A program made the translations under genes and the position numbers. From Candidatus Paraimprobicoccus trichonymphae (GTDB lineage Bacteria > Bacillota > Clostridia > Oscillospirales > Acutalibacteraceae), in assembly GCA_036322875.1 (NCBI GenBank), contig AP027925.1, positions 693,203-757,202 of the forward strand: 64,000 nucleotides of DNA, written 5' to 3'. The notes under the pieces were generated by a model. The model was not told the DNA's origin. It was given only the letters and a program-made list of their open reading frames with translations, and searched no databases. Positions 3,649 through 17,002 of the stretch are shown in pieces (positions within the stretch are counted from its first letter, which is position 1; each line of letters begins with the position of its first letter).

Positions 3649-4600
3649 ATTGTTTATTATTCACAACAGCTGTTTTAAAATCTGGATATTTAGGTGGTTT
3701 ACCTCCCCTTTTTTCATAATATTTATCTGGCATTAATGGATTTTTATTTCTTTCAATTTTTTCTATATCTACAAAACTTTCTTCGCCTTCTCTAACTTCT
3801 CTTGCAACTACAACCATTCTAGAATTTTCAAACTCATAAGAGCAAGTTGAAAGAGTAATTAAATTATCATTTTTACTTATATCAACGGGAAATTTGTATA
3901 AACTTCTTATTTTTATGTTGTAAACAAATTCTAGAAAAGCCTCTTCGCTTGGAAAATCAGATATTAGATAATTAAAAACTTTTCCATCTTCTGGGCAAAT
4001 ATCAGCTTTAAAAACAGAGATAACCTTAAATTCTGTTAATTTTTCTGGTGTATCAAATTTTATAATCGAGGCTTTTTTGCAAAAATCTTCATTTTGATAC
4101 TTTAATAAATCAGCAAACATAGTTCCATCACGCATACTGTGTCCATGTATTAAAATATTTTTTGATGTTTCTTGCAAATTACATGAATTATCAAGAAAAA
4201 TACTTCCATATCGAGTTTTCGCCTTATTACAATCATGATCTATATAAAAGTAAATTTTTTTATCTAAGTCTTTAGACTGTTGAAGAACTGGGTAGTCTAT
4301 ATTACTTCCTTCAATATTTATCCAACCTTTTATATCTGGATTCACTTTTAATAAATCTTCAAATTTTATATATTCTTTTGGTTCTTCTTGCTTAACTATT
4401 TCAGTTGTTTCAACTTCTATTTTTTCTGATCCTTCACTATTAATATTATTATCCTTGTAGTAAATTTCTTTAATGTTTTGAGTGCTTTTTCTTGATATAT
4501 ATGAATCAATAATTAAGTTTCTAACTAAAATTAAAGTTAGATATATAAACGTTAATATTGACAAATAATAAATCAGCTTGCTAAAATACTTTTTTTTCAT
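3644..4600 (-). CDS. srtB: Class B sortase
   Basis: N-terminal TM, ILIHGHSMRDGTMFADL, TLSTCSY catalytic Cys motif, VVVAREV. The stop codon lies inside the right end of the adjacent IS605 remnant. Confidence 0.85.
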   Translation of the reverse strand: MKKKYFSKLIYYLSILTFIYLTLILVRNLIIDSYISRKSTQNIKEIYYKDNNINSEGSEKIEVETTEIVKQEEPKEYIKFEDLLKVNPDIKGWINIEGSNIDYPVLQQSKDLDKKIYFYIDHDCNKAKTRYGSIFLDNSCNLQETSKNILIHGHSMRDGTMFADLLKYQNEDFCKKASIIKFDTPEKLTEFKVISVFKADICPEDGKVFNYLISDFPSEEAFLEFVYNIKIRSLYKFPVDISKNDNLITLSTCSYEFENSRMVVVAREVREGEESFVDIEKIERNKNPLMPDKYYEKRGGKPPKYPDFKTAVVNNKQS

Positions 4601-7207: not shown

Positions 7208-8030
7208 TAGACCTGTCCTAAAACTTTAAAATAATGCTAAAATTTTAGAAAGGACAATAAAAATAGAATTGAAAAGTTACCAGAAACAAAATATTTAGTA
7301 ACATTCGGAATAAGAAAACCAACATTTGAAACAAAGCACGCGATCCTCTAAAGCGCATACAAGGAGATGCGAAAAAAGGCGGTAGAGCGCGAAAATTGAG
7401 TGTTTTGGATATGCTAATTATTATGCTTGGATATTACCACGACTACCACACAATGGAAAATTTGGGCTTTGATTATGGTGTATCTAAACAATGAATTTCC
7501 GAGGCTGTTGCATGGCATGGGTCGAACAAACTTTAATCAAAGATGGAACATTTTCATTGCTGTCAAAACGCGAATTAATCAAGGAAAACACCACGCGATA
7601 ATTGATGTTACAGAATGCGAAACCGAGCGTCCAAAACATGGACAAAAAGCTTCATATTCGGGTAAAAAAAGACACACAATAAAAGACCAAATAGTCATAA
7701 ACGGTGACACAAAACAAATTATAGGTATTTATGAAGAAAAAGGTTCTGTGCATGATTTGGAGATTTTTAAGCGCAGCAAATTTCATTTGTTGAAAGATAT
7801 TTTATTTATTGGCGACAAAGGATATCATGGCCTAAAATTCTACCATTCAAATAGTTTGACGCTATATAAAAATCCGAAAAATGGCGAACTTACTGACGGT
7901 TTAATTCACAAATTTCAAGTTACAGAATTCGCATCTAACACGTAAATCATCGTAATACAAACACAACCTTCTTAGTTTTACTAAATTTTATTTTAGCCAT
8001 TTATAATTTTCAAATACGAACCATCTCGTT
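7208..8030 (+). pseudogene. IS5-like (PIF/Harbinger-type DDE) element, sub-type A, copy 1, degraded
   Basis: Left terminal repeat TAGACCTGTCCTAAAAC at 7208. Fragments LPETKYLVTFGIRKPTFE, AIIDVTECETERPKHGQKASYSGKKRHTIKDQ, IGDKGYHGLK. In-frame TGA where copy 3 has CGA. Frame break after ENTTR. The right end is degenerate. Confidence 0.75.
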
Positions 8031-8875: not shown

Positions 8876-10045
8876 GTGGTTTTTTTGGCATCAGGTGCAT
8901 TATCTTTCATTTTGAATAAAACAAGAGATTGGAAATATAAAAATGTACTAAAAAATATTAAGTTTATAGATGATTGTTTATATAAAAAAATTGAAAATTC
9001 TGAAAATGGGGTGTTTATTTCTAGCTCTTTTGATGGTAATTTTCAAGAAATGATTTGGCACAGATTAAAAATCAAATCAGAAGTACCACAAAATGGATTA
9101 TTAAAACTGAAAATTTTTGCAAGTGATTATAAGGGAATTTTTGTAAAAGAAATAGATAAAAAAATAAATGATTTAGACGAGTTTTTTTTAGATAAAAAAA
9201 TAAGTATAAATAAAAAAATTGAAGTTTTTGAAAGCATAAAAACAAAAGAATTCAAGAATCCTAAAGATTTGCTTCTATTTGATGTAACCGGGAGGTTTTT
9301 ATGGATATATTTAGAGTTAGTAAGCTATGAAAAAGAACAAATAAAAATCGAATATTTAAAAATTGAATTTCCTAGAGTTACTTTTGCAGATTATTTGCCA
9401 GATATATACAAAGAAAGTTTCGAAAATAATCTTTTTTTGTACAGATTTGTGGGAATATTTCAGTCAATGTATGTTGATACAGAAGATAATATAGATTTTA
9501 TAACTCTAAATTTTGATCCTAAAATAGCAAATTATGATTTTTTACAATGGATATCAAACTGGTTGTCTGTAAAAGATGTCCCAATTTGGGGAAAGGAAAA
9601 ACTTAGAGAAATATTAAAACATGTAGTAAATCTTTATAAAATCAAAGGAACTAAAATTTCTATATCTTTAATTGTAGAAGAATTTGTTGGTACTAAACCT
9701 ATAATAATAGAACATTTTGAAATAGAAAATAATCAATATTATAATCTACAGTCACATATTATAAATAAACTTTTTGGAGACAATAGCTTCGTATTTACAG
9801 TAATACTTACAGAAAAATATGTAAAAAACTCTGAAAAATATATAGAAATTTTAAGAGTCATAAACAGTGTGAAACCAATAGACTCTATCTGTAATTTAGT
9901 GGTGTTAAATGACAAAATATATTTAGACTATCATTGTTACTTAGAAATAAATTCCTATATTGCAAAAAATTGTGAACTTGTATTAGATGAAAACAATGAT
10001 TTGGATGTTTTAATGCTAAAAAAATTCAGTCAGGATTCAAAATAA
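8876..10045 (+). CDS. Contractile-tail/eCIS baseplate protein, P2 gpI-like tail protein domain
   Basis: FADYLPDIYKE..FLYRFVGIFQSMY...FDPKIANYDFLQWISNWLS...KLREILKHVVNLYKIKGTK matches the conserved phage tail protein I / Afp12-type pattern (from memory). Intact 389-aa ORF, GTG start. Confidence 0.7.
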   Translation: MVFLASGALSFILNKTRDWKYKNVLKNIKFIDDCLYKKIENSENGVFISSSFDGNFQEMIWHRLKIKSEVPQNGLLKLKIFASDYKGIFVKEIDKKINDLDEFFLDKKISINKKIEVFESIKTKEFKNPKDLLLFDVTGRFLWIYLELVSYEKEQIKIEYLKIEFPRVTFADYLPDIYKESFENNLFLYRFVGIFQSMYVDTEDNIDFITLNFDPKIANYDFLQWISNWLSVKDVPIWGKEKLREILKHVVNLYKIKGTKISISLIVEEFVGTKPIIIEHFEIENNQYYNLQSHIINKLFGDNSFVFTVILTEKYVKNSEKYIEILRVINSVKPIDSICNLVVLNDKIYLDYHCYLEINSYIAKNCELVLDENNDLDVLMLKKFSQDSK

Positions 10046-10159: not shown

Positions 10160-10904
10160 AGTGAAAAAAAGATGTCAAAATTGCCAGAGAAAAAATATTT
10201 AGTAACATTTGGAATAATGAAACCAACATTTGATGCGGTGATTGAGATTCTTGAAAAAGCATATGAAAGAACACAAAAAAGAAGAGCGCGAAAACCCAGC
10301 GTTCTAGATATGATGATAATAACACTGAGGTATTATCATGATTATCGAACGATGAAAAATATTGGACTTGAATATGGAGTCCATGTGTAGCGTATTTGCG
10401 AAGCTATTGCTTGAAAGAATGGAGCGTTTTCATTGCCTTTAAAACGCAAGTTAGTCAAAGAAAATACCGCGCGATTATCGAAGTAACAGAGTGCGAAATC
10501 GGACGTCCAAATATAAACAAAAAACGTTATACAATAAAAGATCAGCTAGAGAAACGGGCTTAATTATAGGCGTTTATGAGGAGAAAGGTTCATGTACATT
10601 TTTAAAAGGAGCAAATTTCATTTTTTGAAAAATATTTTGCTCATCGGTGACAAAGGATACCAAGGCATAAAATTGTATCACTCAAACAGTTTGACTCATT
10701 ACAAAAAACTTAAAAATGGCGAACTTACCAAATATCAAAAGTGGTTTAATTCTCAAATTGGAAGCTACAGAGTTCATATTGAGCACGCATAAAATGATTC
10801 AAAATTTTGCAATATCGCTATCGTAATAAACAAAAAAACATTTACTTCTCATTTCTTTAATTTTAGGTATTTATAACTTTGAGCTAGGTTTTAGGATAGA
10901 TCTA
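10160..10904 (+). pseudogene. IS5-like element, sub-type A, copy 2, degraded
   Basis: MSKLPEKKYLVTFGIMKPTF..., AIIEVTECEIGRP, LIGDKGYQGIKLYHSNSLT, RVHIEH. Right terminal repeat GTTTTAGGATAGATCTA ends at 10904. Several stops and frameshifts. Confidence 0.7.
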
Positions 10905-11523
10905 TTTTATTATTCATACTACATGATATTCTACATCATTTAATTTATGGGTTCTTTTTCGGACTTGTTAGTTACTAATTGCTATTTTAATAAAATTTTG
11001 TCATATTTTCAATGATTTTTTCTATTCGATTTTGGTGAAATAATCTGTATAAGATTCAACGTTTTAGTCAATTCGCAAATTTCATCACCCACGTATACTT
11101 TATACATAAGTAAATATAAGTGTTTTTTAAAATGCCAGCTGCATCCGGATGAACTTTTACGTACGTTAAATCTAAACAAAAAATTCGCCTTTTCACAGAA
11201 ATTACTACGTTTTTTTTAAATACACAAAAATATTTTCGAGTACACCACTCATCTATTTACCCTCAATATAGATCGTGTACCAATTATTTCCGATGGATCT
11301 CCATTTACTGCGCACATGTAAAAACGTATTTAACACTTCTAAATTATTTTGTTTGAACAAACTCTAGAAATTAAATTTGTGAATAAAAACTTGTAATAAT
11401 GGAAAAATAAAACTTAGGAGGTATTAAAAAATAAAAAATATAGACAATTTTGAGACAGAAGTAAAATTTATTTTACCCAAAGGTTATATAGATCAAACTG
11501 GAGAACTTCATAGAGAAGGTATT

Positions 11524-11811
11524 ATGCGGTTAGCAAATGCCGGGGATGAAATTATGCCTCTTAATGATCCTAGAGTTAAAATAAATCCTGGCTATTTAAG
11601 TATTTTGTTATTACAAAGAGTTATCAAAAATTTAGGTACTCTAAATAAGATAGATGTTAGTGTTATAGAAAGTTTATTTACAGCAGATATGGCGTATTTG
11701 CAAGATTTATATCAAAAAATAAATTCTGTGGAACCACAAAAATTAACAGTTCAATGTACTAAATGTTCTAATAGATTTGTAGTGCAAGTGCCTTTTTTCG
11801 GGGAAGCCTGA
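11524..11811 (+). CDS. Tail assembly chaperone, P2 gpE-like (conserved region extends upstream to 11428 without an ATG)
   Basis: REGIMRLANAGDEIMPLNDPRVKINPGYLSILLL resembles gpE-type chaperones. The open frame continues upstream (KIKNIDNFETEVKFILPKGYIDQTGELH) to a TAA at 11425. AGGAGG at 11416-11421. Confidence 0.6.
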   Translation: MRLANAGDEIMPLNDPRVKINPGYLSILLLQRVIKNLGTLNKIDVSVIESLFTADMAYLQDLYQKINSVEPQKLTVQCTKCSNRFVVQVPFFGEA

Positions 11812-11999
11812 AAAGTTATCCTCAAGATATTTTATATGAAGAAATAGCTTTTTTGGCTTACTATTTTCACTGGTCACATAAAGAAATTATTAACTTAAAT
11901 CACATTGAAAGACTTAAATTTTGTGATGAAATTTCTAAAATAAATAAAAAAATTAATGAGAGTTCTGGTTTTAAAAAGAAAAATATATTTGAAGTATAG
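11775..11999 (+). CDS. -1-frame extension ORF lacking its own ATG (E'-like; small conserved contractile-tail cluster protein)
   Basis: Frame translation ...FFRGSLKSYPQDILYEEIAFLAYYFHWSHKEIINLNHIERLKFCDEISKINKK... No ATG/GTG/TTG start in this frame. Overlaps the end of the chaperone ORF. Confidence 0.5.
   Translation: MCSASAFFRGSLKSYPQDILYEEIAFLAYYFHWSHKEIINLNHIERLKFCDEISKINKKINESSGFKKKNIFEV
11793..11799 (+). promoter_or_regulatory. Candidate -1 ribosomal frameshift heptamer T_TTT_TTC
   Basis: X_XXY_YYZ heptamer in the zero frame, 10 nt before the TGA of the chaperone ORF. The -1 frame is open from 11775 to 11999. Confidence 0.45.
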
Positions 12000-12014
12000 A
12001 GTGGTGACAATTTG

Positions 12015-12626
12015 ATGATAGAAAAACTAATGAGTTTTTTACAAAATTATGATAAATTAAGACCTTCAAAACGTGCTAGTGCTATGGATTATGTGCAACA
12101 AGGTTGTAACTTCATAGTTACTTTTAATCTTATGTACAAATATGGTTTCAAAGAAGTGTCAGGTATAGAAGTCCGCAAAAAATACGGAACAATCTCTGAA
12201 GGAGGTGTTAACGATCATGCTATTTTAGTTGGCGAGGCCGAAGGCAGTGAACTTAGTCTGGAATTCAAAAGGGGAATGTTGATAAGAGACTACTCATCAA
12301 GTGGAATTAACGCAGCTAGTGCTCTTGCCGCTGCACTGATAAATAACAATCTCCTTCGTAGAACAGCTCTTGTAAGCTTAAATTCGATTACCCCGCAAAC
12401 TGCTCTCGAAAATGGACCTTCTTTTGGCGAAATAGAAGTGTACAATAGGCAGGTTGAGCTAGTAGCAAGATATACTTTTTGGTCCGTGGGAGTAACTAGT
12501 TGGAAATTAGATGAATTAAGCGCCGAAAGCGCTAATCCATTAATAGAAGAATTTACTATAGCTCATAATGGAATAACTAGAGAACCGATATCTATACCAG
12601 AAAGTTTGAAATTAAATAATTATTAA
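12015..12626 (+). CDS. Contractile-tail/eCIS tube protein (T4 gp19 / Afp1-5-like)
   Basis: FIVTFN...GFKEVSGIEV..YGTISEGGVNDHAILVGE...LEFKRGML...IEEFTIAHNGI follows the conserved tail-tube pattern (F.V..g...gF.evsGl..e...y.eGG.n...lpg...l.L.rG). Confidence 0.75.
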   Translation: MIEKLMSFLQNYDKLRPSKRASAMDYVQQGCNFIVTFNLMYKYGFKEVSGIEVRKKYGTISEGGVNDHAILVGEAEGSELSLEFKRGMLIRDYSSSGINAASALAAALINNNLLRRTALVSLNSITPQTALENGPSFGEIEVYNRQVELVARYTFWSVGVTSWKLDELSAESANPLIEEFTIAHNGITREPISIPESLKLNNY

Positions 12627-13245
12627 AAATTATTTTTGCAGAGTTATTTCTATTTTATTTGTTTGGCAAGAGCTGTAAATTTGCTTATACTTCCCTGCTT
12701 TCAGCATGTATATGGTGTTTTTCTGCGATAAATTTTGCACTATTTTTTGTTCATTAAGTTTATTGAAGTTTAAATATTTTGGAGGTAATAAAGTTTTCAT
12801 TTTTTGGTATTTTGATTAATCCCAAAAATCTTGGAGCATCTCAAATTTTGTTACCGGTGTTTTGATTATGGTTTTAGTCATTTACTCAATATATTCAGTT
12901 TAGAAGGTTTATTGCATTTTTTGCATTCATGTTTGGATACTTTATTGCTTTGAAGTTTCCATATTTTTGATTTTACGATAAACGCAATTTAATTTTTATT
13001 TTGACATTATAATTTTTGATTATACATGATTTTTTAATGTCATTAAATAATAATCAAAATTTATCTACTACAGTAAAAACCTTGACATTCCTTATGCCTA
13101 AAGGAAGGGGATTCTTGGGGGGTGCATACAGAAGTGTATTTCTACCATCTTTAAGCCCCGAGATATGCCATTGCCTCCATCCTAAACCAGTGCATACAGC
13201 AGTTTAGGCTGGTTTCCTTTTACCAAAAACCACAGGTGCGTTTAT

Positions 13246-14127
13246 AATAGACCTGTTTCTAAACTCAAAAACCTAACCTATGATTATACAAACTTGCAAT
13301 TAATTTGACCTTGAGTAAACCTCTTTTTCCTTTGTTTCTGTAAATTTCTTTACAAATTCTAAATATTTTTATTTCTCTATTAATGTGTTCAATTGTGATT
13401 CTTTTTTGTGCCAAAAGCCTATTTTCAACGATTTATTCTTCGGTGAGAGGATGATTTTTTGTAGCTTTTTTTGGTATTTTAGCATTCGGAAAAAATTTTT
13501 GAATTCCTTGATACCATTTATCTGCATAAATTTTAACTTCTTTCCCGAGTATTTTGGTTAAAGAGTTTTTAAATATTACAAAATTGTGTGTTGCGCTGGT
13601 TACATTAAAAACATCAAATGTTTTACGTGTTTTTGCATTAGCTAAAATTTGATATTTTGTTGTGTGCCTCTTTTTTTACTTGAGTATGATACTTTTTGTT
13701 TGTACTTCGAGGCTGTTCTTCAACATCTAAGAACAACATTTCAAAATTATTTTTTTCAGTATTATCGGATTTAAAACGTTTTTTAATCTCTTTGATCTTG
13801 AACTTTTCCTACCGTCTTAAAACATCTTCCACCCAAATTATATATTTGCATAGCGTTGACTTTGGTACTTCATAATCAAAGGCCATATGACGCATATTTT
13901 CTGTATCCTCGCCAATATTCAAGTGCATCTGAGTTCAACTGAAAGTCCATTCCTTCCACCTTTTCTGTGTGTCTATTGATACTTTTTTTAAAATTTTTAG
14001 CATTTTTTTGAATACCGCTTTTGTGACTCCTGTGATTAATTTGAAATTTTGGTCTTTTTGTTTTTTTATTTTTTCATACTTATTCATTTGTTTATTTTAC
14101 CATTTTTTGTTTTTGGACAGGTCTAAT
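13246..14127 (-). pseudogene. IS5-like element, sub-type B, complete ends, transposase frameshifted
   Basis: Terminal repeats AATAGACCTGTTTCTAAAC (13246) and GGACAGGTCTAAT (14115-14127). Minus-strand fragments ALEYWRGYRKY, FDYEVPKSTLCKYII, KKRHTTKYQILANAKTRKTFDVFN, ADKWYQGIQKF, RITIEHINREIK. Confidence 0.75.
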
Positions 14128-15741
14128 ATAATTTGTCGGTTTTTTAAAATTTTTGAATTTTAAAGTTTTTTTGCTGATTTCCCGATTGGGGTATTATATT
14201 TTATTAAAAAATCTTTGCCTCGTCTGTACTTTTTGATTATCTTTGATATATAAGAATTGTATTTTCCCTCTAAATGTTGCGTAAAAATTGTATTCCGTCA
14301 AATATGCAAAGTAACCAGTCCGCAGCTAAGCAATAATAATTTAAGATACCGCATGTTTCAGTATTGTATCTTTCTACAATTTTGTAATCGGGTAGATATA
14401 GCCAATCTTTCTTGTGCAGTGGTCTAATTTTTTGCTTCTTTTCGCCTTGTTACACCGTTTTAAAACATCATTTTTTCTATTTTCTTGAACGGAACTGATA
14501 AATTTACTTTACCATTTAGTATTCGGGCTTTTCTTCCAAGCAAATCGATTTTTACTTCTGAATTTCGACGCACCGAAACATCATACCCCAAAAATCTTAC
14601 TTCTTTACTACTGTGAGTAATTAATGTTTTTTCTTCGATTAAAATTATTTTTAATTCTGTGTTGACTTTGTAATTCTTTGATTGTTTTTAATAACGCCGT
14701 CTTTTCTTCAGGCGAGGCATCTTTTTTATTGCCTAGCACATTTAAATAAATGTTATCAAAAATAGGTGAGAGTTGGGGGTGTACCCGAGTAAGTTTGGTG
14801 GTGCTTCCAGTTTTTCATATATTCGAAAATCTCGGATAATATTTATAAATTTGCCATCCTTAATTTTTTGATCAAGCATTTCAATGAGTTTATCATGGTT
14901 TATGTTGTCGAAACAGCCTTTGATGTCGCCTTCTATGAACCATATTGCACTATTGAACGGGTATAACAACGGGTCTCATTTTTTCCATTAAGCCTTTTGA
15001 TAAATCCCCTGCGTAATGGCTTGGATTTAAAAGTACCATTTGTAAGTTCTGTTATTAACTTTTCAACATACGTTCTTCCCTAATTCATCTATCGTATCAT
15101 TATCAGTACCTGGATTCAGAGCATCATTGTTTTTGCTTGATTTTTGATAAGCAACGTAGTACGTAAGAGGTATCTGTAAAAATGAGTATATACGCCAACT
15201 TTATGGTCACTAGAATTTTTAAAAATACGCTCCAAAATATCAGTCGTTGGCTTTGTCACGGATTCTCCGTCCTTTCAACTTTCTTATTTTGAAATATACT
15301 AACTGCCTCCCTTTGACGCTTTCCCGCCCTTGGATTAATATGAAGGCTCTGTTACCATGTGGAATAAACTCCCTTTAGGTAATCCCCAATTAACTTTGTT
15401 TCTTGGATGTAAATTATCGGATATGCTTTATAGTCTGTTAAAATATGTTCCCGTGCTTACTTTGCAATATTGTGGTAACAGTGTGTACGAATACGACATA
15501 CAAGCTCATTGCAATATTAGGAGCTAAGAGTTTAATTTCCCGGTTAACAGACTTTGCATTAGGCAAGATAGCCCTATTTCCATATCTACTGCTAATCGTA
15601 ACCTTAACTCCAGAACAATTTGCCGCTTCCTCACCGTGCATTGATCAACTTTTGTTTTGCAGTAAAGTAAGCCTTTCTGCTGCGTTATCATGCAGCATAG
15701 TTCCAATTATCTACTATAAACAAAGCCCTATCTGGGTGCAC
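14128..15741 (-). pseudogene. Group II intron fossil with dead reverse transcriptase/maturase
   Basis: Minus strand starts GTGCACCCAGATAGGGC (GUGYG-like 5' end) followed by ~470 nt of structured RNA. RT fragments [65 protein letters not shown] domains 3-4 and the YADD segment are deleted. The 3' part is cut by the IS at 13246-14127. Confidence 0.7.
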
Positions 15742-15889
15742 ATATTCTTTTCATATTATATTTTGTGGTTTTTAGGATAGGTCTAATAAAGGAAAAATCT
15801 ACGTAGAAACAAAAAATCACCATTTAAACAAATTAATACTTGAAATACCAGCTTTATTGTTATTATTTTTAGAGAGGCTGTTCATGTGA

Positions 15890-16143
15890 AATAGGAAATT
15901 AAAAATGAAAATCATAACATTGATCGGAAAAAATATGTCTAAACCACTTGATTTTCAAGAATGTTCGTTTGATCTAATTACAGTTTTTAAGTTATGAGGC
16001 CATGATAAGTAAAACAACTTTAACCGAAACTGATATTCTCGACAATTTTTATATCTTATTTATCTTGTATGCTTTATGTACAAACAAAAATTTTTTCTTT
16101 TTTACTTTAACCAAATTTTATTTTATGTGAACAGGTTCTAAAA
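15890..16143 (+). pseudogene. IS5-like 3' remnant with degenerate right terminal repeat
   Basis: Short transposase C-terminal-like frame ending near GTGAACAGGTTCTAAAAA, which resembles the GGACAGGTCTA repeat. Confidence 0.35.
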
Positions 16144-16381
16144 AATAATGAACTCAATCCATTCTAAAATATAAATATTATAGATTTTCTTGAGTCATCT
16201 TAATAAAAATATTTCATCGTCGCTTTTACGTATTTAAAGTATAACATCTTCCTGGCAGGTGGTGTATACAAAAATCCACCAATCATGCCAATAAACACCC
16301 ACTAACCTCATTCTTTTGAATAATGAGCCACAACCAAAAATCTAAAATTTTAATTCTTAAATTTTAAAATAATTAAGAAAA

Positions 16382-16621
16382 TTAATTAGTATCGTTCTGA
16401 TCATCAGGATTATTTGAACTAATAGACGATTTTTTACCTATTTCCTTCCCTATATAATAAGAATTACTTGCAATCTGAGCTTGATTTTCATCTTCAAGGA
16501 AAAAAACATCTTGATCCAAATCATCATCGAAGACAAAAAATCCTACTTTACCATCATATTCTCCTTCTCTAACACCTCTGCCTGAGACCTTTTCTAAATT
16601 TTCATTAAGCAATTTTTTCAT
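16382..16621 (-). CDS. Hypothetical small acidic protein (79 aa)
   Basis: Intact ORF with GGAGG-type RBS (GTAGGAGGTACGG upstream of the ATG on the minus strand). N-terminus MKKLLNENLEKVSGRG. No recognisable family. Confidence 0.45.
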   Translation of the reverse strand: MKKLLNENLEKVSGRGVREGEYDGKVGFFVFDDDLDQDVFFLEDENQAQIASNSYYIGKEIGKKSSISSNNPDDQNDTN

Positions 16622-16941
16622 AAACCGTACCTCCTACAATATTTTAATACAGTGGTATTCGCTAACCAAATATGGCGCCCCCCGTATGTAACACTATTTT
16701 ACCTCTTTTATTTATAAGACAAATAAAACGCAATGTCAAGTGTTTTTTAGTAACTGCTATCCAAATATTAAAGATCAGAGTTATTTGGTTTGTAATTGTT
16801 TATCAGAAGTCACTAAACTCCTCTCAAATATAAAAAGATATTTTTTTTATTTTTCACACCTAGCAATTTTAATTAAATTTATATTATATCTTCGAAATTT
16901 TTTGCTCGAAAAACTTTAAATTACAAAATTTAAAAAAAGTA

Positions 16942-16970
16942 TTGATAAAAAATAATAATAATAGTAAAGT
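16942..16970 (+). promoter_or_regulatory. hrcA operon promoter
   Basis: TTGATA-N17-TAAAGT immediately upstream of the CIRCE element. Confidence 0.5.
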
Positions 16971-16975
16971 ATAAA

Positions 16976-17002
16976 TTAGCAGTCTTAACATAAGAGTGCT
17001 AA
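16976..17002 (+). promoter_or_regulatory. CIRCE operator (HrcA binding site)
   Basis: TTAGCAGTC-N9-GAGTGCTAA against the consensus TTAGCACTC-N9-GAGTGCTAA. Confidence 0.85.

Follow-up and report, generated by a model that had tools for sequence, protein, structure and literature searches.

The stretch of DNA analysed here (the window, 64,000 nt of the genome of Candidatus Paraimprobicoccus trichonymphae) carries an extracellular contractile injection system (eCIS) gene group that includes a tail assembly chaperone gene, an overlapping frame with a DUF6760 domain and a second tube-family gene. The features of the locus are as follows.

8876 to 10045, plus strand: Cis12/P2 gpI-like baseplate protein (NCBIfam CIS12_fam, E 2.2e-32; Pfam Tail_P2_I).
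11416 to 11421, plus strand: Shine-Dalgarno sequence AGGAGG of the chaperone gene, read directly and aligned with AGGAG before the ATG of locus L004.
11431 to 11811, plus strand: tail assembly chaperone, the putative short zero-frame product (translation, homologues, PHROG 508, AF2, dN/dS).
11793 to 11799, plus strand: candidate slippery heptamer T_TTT_TTC in the zero-frame register X_XXY_YYZ (codons CCT TTT TTC).
11799 to 11999, plus strand: -1 frame extension as it would be read after a slip, from CGG 11799 to TAG 11997-11999.
11804 to 11859, plus strand: predicted 3' stimulatory hairpin (RNAfold), with its 5' arm at 11804-11820 and its 3' arm at 11841-11859.
12012 to 12626, plus strand: second tube-family gene (T4 gp19/Cis5-like; Pfam Phage_T4_gp19, E 1.8e-11).

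The second tube-family gene begins 12-15 nt past the DUF6760 stop and is the same neighbour that is found in relatives such as L022. The Cis12-like gene is shorter than its family model, which it matches at positions 423-566 of 715. A DDE transposase fragment (DDE_Tnp_4/DDE_Tnp_1) adjoins the eCIS genes at 7427-7945, and the stretch from 12626 to 16996 holds no long ORF on either strand. A promoter and terminator scan of 10900-13000 returned no more sites than were found in shuffled sequences.

The chaperone (zero) frame is open from 11428, directly after a TAA at 11425-11427, and runs to a TGA stop that we read directly at 11809-11811. Its C-terminal end reads ...RFVVQVPFFGEA, confirming the ...VQVPFFGEA terminus given in a preliminary description of this DNA. 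No ATG, GTG or TTG precedes the conserved N-terminus, and the first ATG of the ORF is at 11524. An ATA at 11431 lies 9 nt past AGGAGG and corresponds in alignment to the ATG at position 3986 of L004, the closest relative. We consider ATA 11431 to be the probable chaperone start, a decayed start codon that would still be used; AT pressure seems to have turned its G into A. Translation could start at an ATA codon, if weakly. The predicted short product is ~127 aa in length, with a CxxC...C zinc-ribbon-like tail behind a beta/alpha core.

The frame in the -1 register overlaps the chaperone frame, is open from 11775 to 11999 as previously stated, and reads ...FFRGSLKSYPQDILYEEIAFLAYYFHWSHKEIINLNHIERLKFCDEISKIN.... 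Its first ATG, GTG or TTG is TTG 11853, which falls inside a conserved domain, in agreement with the earlier statement that this frame has no such start or RBS of its own. The domain (about 11817-11969) is Pfam PF20546, DUF6760, matched at 63.7 bits (E 1.7e-17, model positions 5-55 of 89) against a gathering threshold of 27 bits, and the same Pfam match was obtained in 78/78 aligned relatives. The impression that the -1 peptide looked conserved was borne out by the DUF6760 match and by its conservation in related loci, and because the peptide is both a true Pfam family and conserved across these loci, the observation lies well beyond chance. Translation through the overlap by a -1 slip would give a long product of ~190 aa with the junction ...VQVPFF/RGSLKSYPQD... 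(the slash marks the change of frame). Databases annotate the chaperone and DUF6760 as two genes. We also considered a reading of TGA as Trp (code table 4), which was rejected: with table 11, the housekeeping genes dnaK, metG, ileS and rpsB all have long uninterrupted ORFs, and passing through TGA 11809 gains just 12 codons.

The zero-frame protein has 596 homologues with up to 78% identity, of ~123-125 aa, which carry the NCBI name "phage tail assembly protein". PHROG 508, "tail assembly chaperone", matched 91/95 family members (best E 1.5e-8), the window copy scored E 0.0038, and the Pfam models for phage tail assembly chaperones (TACs) matched weakly (Gp41_Mu, E 0.08). The window copy keeps 37/37 invariant family positions (alignment A1). 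Judged by the PHROG 508 hits and the NCBI names of its relatives, the upstream ORF is a member of a phage TAC family, as the preliminary description had proposed, and both frames now have a family assignment, the zero frame to PHROG 508 and the -1 frame to DUF6760. An AF2 model of the chaperone (pLDDT 85) found its best fold matches in BFVD among T4-like baseplate hub assembly proteins (gp51/gp26 type, ~260 aa) at E 2e-7 and TMq 0.6-0.67, which hints that the T4 gp51/gp26 helpers and the eCIS chaperone may share a fold. Against the PDB, the best match was the PBSX-type protein YqbN (3klu), which was not significant (TMq 0.51, E 0.39), and a search by sequence for relatives with solved structures returned noise only. 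In a comparison with four relatives, the chaperone had dN/dS values of 0.07-0.16 and the -1 frame values of 0.13-0.20, each being an average over both lineages; by this measure both frames are under purifying selection.

The T_TTT_TTC sequence at 11793-11799 does occupy the zero-frame register that had been claimed for it, although the distance from the heptamer to the chaperone stop is nine bases (11800-11808) rather than the 10 nt given earlier. The window DNA is 28% G+C, 2.65% of the codons in its long frames carry an in-register X_XXY_YYZ heptamer, and the chance of at least one such heptamer in the 11-codon overlap is ~0.26. Because of this chance in an AT-rich window, the heptamer by itself is not significant, and it is the comparative evidence, not the heptamer alone, that carries the case for a putative frameshift.

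Our search for related loci returned 80, from Clostridia (gut and termite), Moorena and Symploca cyanobacteria, Chloroflexota, a Methylocystaceae MAG and an ANME-2 archaeon. With the window and with L001 and L002, the duplicate loci of its own genome and of G006, 83 loci were analysed, 81 of them distinct. DUF6760 lies in the -1 frame relative to the chaperone in 83/83 loci, although counts of this kind overstate independence because the loci are mutually related. The DUF6760 start falls 2-26 nt past the chaperone stop in all loci except L058, where the interval is 146 nt. Indels have placed the slip site at -7 to -25 nt relative to the stop, depending on the lineage, and the -1 relation is kept throughout. 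From the opening of the -1 frame to a conserved Tyr, 45 of the 81 distinct loci have no in-frame ATG, GTG or TTG; the other 36 have some such codon upstream of the DUF6760 domain. None of the seven near-cognate codons is present in the open part of the -1 frame in 15/81 loci. A natural in-frame fusion of chaperone and DUF6760 was not found among word-sharing relatives (proteins of 105-332 aa).

Most loci carry an in-register slippery site shortly before the stop. The 18 closest loci all read CCT TTT TTC GGG GAA GCC TAA/TGA, with Pro always encoded by CCT and Phe always by TTT. About 30 loci have an A_AAT_TTT slip site instead, in which AAATTTT always follows GTA or ATA, and the remaining lineages have GAT TTT TTA/G or CCT TTT TTG. 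Loci that lack a canonical heptamer all carry xxG GGG GAR, a G_GGG P-site slip site. Slip sites have thus turned over between lineages (L004-L083), with G_GGG_GAR, T_TTT_TTC, T_TTT_TTG/A and A_AAT_TTT all represented.

Two loci depart from the common arrangement. L049 (~4352-4395 of CAKSLI010000010.1, an Oscillospiraceae MAG) is the only locus of the 81 in which the -1 frame is closed, by a TGA past the chaperone stop; its DUF6760 has its own GAGGGGGG-N8-ATG and no slippery site. L049 thus shows that not every locus makes a fused form and counts against the frameshift reading; DUF6760 seems to have become a gene of its own there and is apparently able to work as a separate protein. In L058 (4364-4683, Flavonifractor sp. 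An306), the -1 frame is open from T_TTT_TTG through an insert of ~47 residues, and a GTG stands directly ahead of the DUF6760 domain.

The hairpin predicted by RNAfold in the window starts 4-6 nt past the heptamer and has a folding energy of -15.5 kcal/mol; its z-score is -1.8 when 61 nt are folded and -2.5 when 70 nt are folded. In 79 loci, the 70 nt past the slip site had a mean z of -1.80 vs. -0.03 for a control segment taken from within that gene (paired Wilcoxon p 4e-13, a value in which the relatedness of the loci overstates independence). Stem onset falls 4-7 nt past the slip site in every lineage, and synonymous positions of both hairpin arms are conserved around a variable loop. We grouped the loci by slip-site type, not by pairing; the class that contains the window comprises 38 loci and has an 11-bp core stem. 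This core stem was 87% paired compared to 45-58% with slid partners, a comparison in which the structure derives from the same sequences, and 0/500 shuffles reached pairing as high. Fifteen cells had changed on both sides of the stem; in cyanobacterial and archaeal loci, for example, A-U became G-C or U-A became C-G. An invariant GCCGG/CCGGC stem, distinct from this one, is found at equal spacing in the A_AAT_TTT lineage, and the G_GGG loci have the core stem 4 nt past the G run. For the group that includes the window, the slip site is 7 nt more upstream and the stem is lengthened by GCC/GGC pairs, which restores the spacing. At least three distinct downstream stems were seen among loci L004-L083, each 4-7 nt from its own slip site. 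On the strength of these alignments, we conclude that the downstream stem is maintained via compensatory changes.

We propose that the locus is an eCIS tail assembly chaperone gene with a programmed -1 ribosomal frameshift of the P2 E/E+E' type, giving a short product and a long, DUF6760-fused product, and we put the probability of this reading at roughly 0.78. The frame relation, the slip sites, the stem and the TAC membership across loci all support the gpE/E'-style pair that the preliminary description had suggested from the window alone. The sequences themselves show the frame arrangement, the missing -1 start, the conservation of slip site and stem, the family memberships and the purifying selection on both frames; the slippage itself, how efficient it would be, the partners that would be bound and the continued expression of the window copy (probably from ATA 11431) are inferred. 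The DUF6760 frame would be startless and yet conserved because it is made by a -1 slip from the chaperone gene. Most ribosomes would follow the zero frame to TGA 11809 and release the short chaperone. Some would pause with UUU UUC in their P and A sites, held by the hairpin at 11804-11859, move back by one base to pair with UUU UUU, and continue from CGG 11799. Reading after the slip would add ~66 residues, the three-helix DUF6760 domain, to give the long form. By analogy with lambda G/GT and P2 E/E+E', the common N-terminal part may bind the tube protein; the same phage analogy suggests that the frameshift-only domain may bind the tape measure or the tail-initiation complex, and that a fixed, low long:short ratio would be delivered for tube assembly.

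The state of the window's gene has to be viewed against the layout of its genome, a single contig of 1.28 Mb over which the eCIS genes are scattered. The relevant genes, all of them open frames, are as follows.

45-46.5 kb of the genome: sheath (578 aa) and first tube gene.
617 kb and 1160 kb: two Baseplate_J-like genes.
702-706 kb: the group of chaperone, DUF6760 and second tube gene, with the short Cis12-like gene.
816 kb: cap (Pvc16_N).
1215 kb: gp25-like gene.

Relatives keep one operon, in the order sheath, tube, chaperone, DUF6760 and second tube-family gene, with no tape measure gene directly downstream, whereas frameshifted phage chaperone genes stand between the genes for tube and tape measure; a distance of 650 kb separates the chaperone locus from the first tube gene in the window's genome. 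A match to Phage_GPD (spike) was not found in the genome. The preliminary description had called the locus a stripped-down tail/eCIS fragment, which does not hold, since the same genome has intact genes for sheath, tube, cap and baseplate at other positions. The eCIS gene set looks dispersed but maintained, not a dead fragment.

This scattering is nevertheless one of the observations that would fit a fossil signal in a dying gene, in which the family uses the frameshift and the window copy is untranslated, its ATG decayed to ATA and its operon broken by IS elements. From TAA 11425 to the conserved N-terminus there is no ATG, GTG or TTG, a DDE-type transposase (IS) remnant and the short Cis12-like gene adjoin the locus, and the sheath and tube genes are far away. 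Both frames, however, are uninterrupted, all of the invariant chaperone positions are kept, a perfect AGGAGG stands 9 nt before the ATA that aligns with the relatives' ATG, and the slip site and stem are intact. The sheath, tube, cap, gp25-like and Baseplate_J-like genes are likewise all open, and dN/dS is low, though averaged over both lineages. We consider a dying gene unlikely, but given the missing canonical start and the dead IS elements around it, the window copy may be poorly expressed or not expressed.

The chaperone and DUF6760 could also be two separately translated genes, with DUF6760 started by translational coupling or from a non-canonical codon (CTG 11807 or ATT 11775) and the -1 relation reflecting a common short operon overlap. 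The standalone DUF6760 of L049 is an arrangement of this kind, a few loci (L026, L044, L045) have an ATGA-type overlap, Pfam and other databases handle DUF6760 as a protein of its own, and the G-rich GGGGA ahead of the stop could serve as an SD. Independent genes, however, would not hold the -1 frame in every locus across indels, nor would they fix the synonymous codons that form the heptamer or a stem 4-7 nt downstream. CTG 11807 is CTA in the nearest relatives, and the loci without any near-cognate codon, like the larger number without a canonical one, argue in the same direction, which makes separate translation quite improbable in our view. Transcriptional slippage, in which RNA polymerase would make some of the mRNAs with a longer or shorter T6 (or G4-5) run, would yield the same -1 long form, from shift sites that, AAATTTT apart, are homopolymer runs. 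The runs here, of 6 T or 4-5 G, are below the ~8-9 A/T needed (Atkins et al., in 2016, reportedly put the requirement for productive transcriptional slippage at A/T runs of about 8-9 or more), the AAATTTT sites are not homopolymers, and a conserved stem 4-7 nt downstream is a hallmark of ribosomal -1 shifting. We regard this mechanism as very improbable indeed.

Programmed ribosomal frameshifting in the eCIS chaperone gene would resemble that of phage P2 (GenBank AF063097), in which E/E+E' is annotated with a -1 shift at T_TTT_TTG (site 19685). Like P2 gpE/gpE+E', the eCIS locus belongs to a contractile-tail lineage and has a small chaperone ORF, a slippery T-run shortly before the zero-frame stop and a startless -1 extension of ~55-65 aa; the motif ...FHW(P/S)xxE...(M/L)...E...W(R/C)E... 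is common to the extension and to P2 E'. Unlike P2 gpE, the eCIS chaperone has a C-terminal CxxC...C element, and the next gene here is a second tube-family gene, not a tape measure, in a host system that is an eCIS and not a phage. An identity of the chaperone part with P2 gpE is not supported, there being no detectable similarity (hhalign E 0.43).

The lambda gpG/gpGT frameshift is said to have been described by Levin, Hendrix and Casjens in 1993, and Xu, Hendrix and Duda reportedly found in 2004 that a -1 frameshift is conserved in the tail assembly chaperone genes of dsDNA phages. The eCIS locus shares with lambda two overlapping ORFs, which in the relatives follow the tube gene, an X_XXY_YYZ site and, by analogy, a fixed short:long ratio. 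It differs in that there is no sequence similarity to gpG/gpGT and that lambda is a siphovirus; lambda also needs no strong 3' structure, whereas the eCIS locus has a conserved hairpin. T4 gp51/gp26 and Bacillus subtilis YqbN/XkdN (PDB 3klu), the best fold matches of the chaperone model, are likewise contractile-tail assembly helpers, but the T4-like proteins are twice as long as the eCIS chaperone, and we know of no frameshift for gp51/gp26.

The AF2 model of DUF6760 has three helices (pLDDT 85), and neither its sequence, its profile nor this model matched PDB chains beyond noise. We compared the DUF6760 profile with 11 P2-type E' sequences, comprising the P2 E/E+E' region and ten diverse P2-type E' extensions, and obtained an hhalign probability of 72% (E 3e-5) over 34 columns, in the region of the common FHW...E...W(R/C)E motif. 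Six of 78 DUF6760 sequences matched Pfam PF06528, Phage_P2_GpE, all below threshold (best E 0.0051). DUF6760 is probably, at weak to moderate confidence, distantly related to the E' extension found in P2 gpE+E'.

The eCIS clade to which this locus belongs is said to lack Cis6 in gut-metagenome surveys. Cis6/Afp6/Pvc6/Alg6, the "spike plug" of AFP/PVC-type eCIS, is a small helical protein that is required for particle assembly and whose gene adjoins the Cis5 tube gene (PMC12546770, PMC8894136); neither paper mentions a frameshift for Cis6. DUF6760 occupies a comparable operon slot, but Cis6, unlike the DUF6760 frame, has its own start. The possibility that DUF6760 is Cis6 is not supported, since PDB searches by sequence, by profile and by fold gave no matching chain. 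DUF6760 might still act as a functional stand-in for the spike plug or as a tape-measure anchor, delivered in the long form into the tube lumen or spike cavity and freed in a few lineages (such as L049), with the slip site replaced several times and the stem re-spaced; we think this unlikely.

The frameshift mechanism is classical. We found no paper on DUF6760, nor any linking eCIS, tail assembly chaperones and frameshifting. The proposed reading would provide a mechanism and a likely role for an uncharacterised Pfam family, and would correct the annotation of hundreds of eCIS loci, at present entered as a "phage tail assembly protein" plus a small ORF that is either truncated or absent. For eCIS expression or engineering, recoding or codon-optimising the chaperone gene would be expected to destroy the slip site and the stem, and thus the long form. 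A phage tail-assembly recoding device would appear to have been kept by eCIS from bacteria to archaea, and the window's chaperone gene would be marked as still under selection despite its scattered eCIS operon. The organism of the window may be a comparable Oscillospiraceae symbiont with a reduced genome, as close homologues (P0086, P0098, L022) are found in termite-gut Oscillospiraceae MAGs and in "Candidatus Improbicoccus" endosymbionts of termite protists, which have genomes of ~1 Mb.
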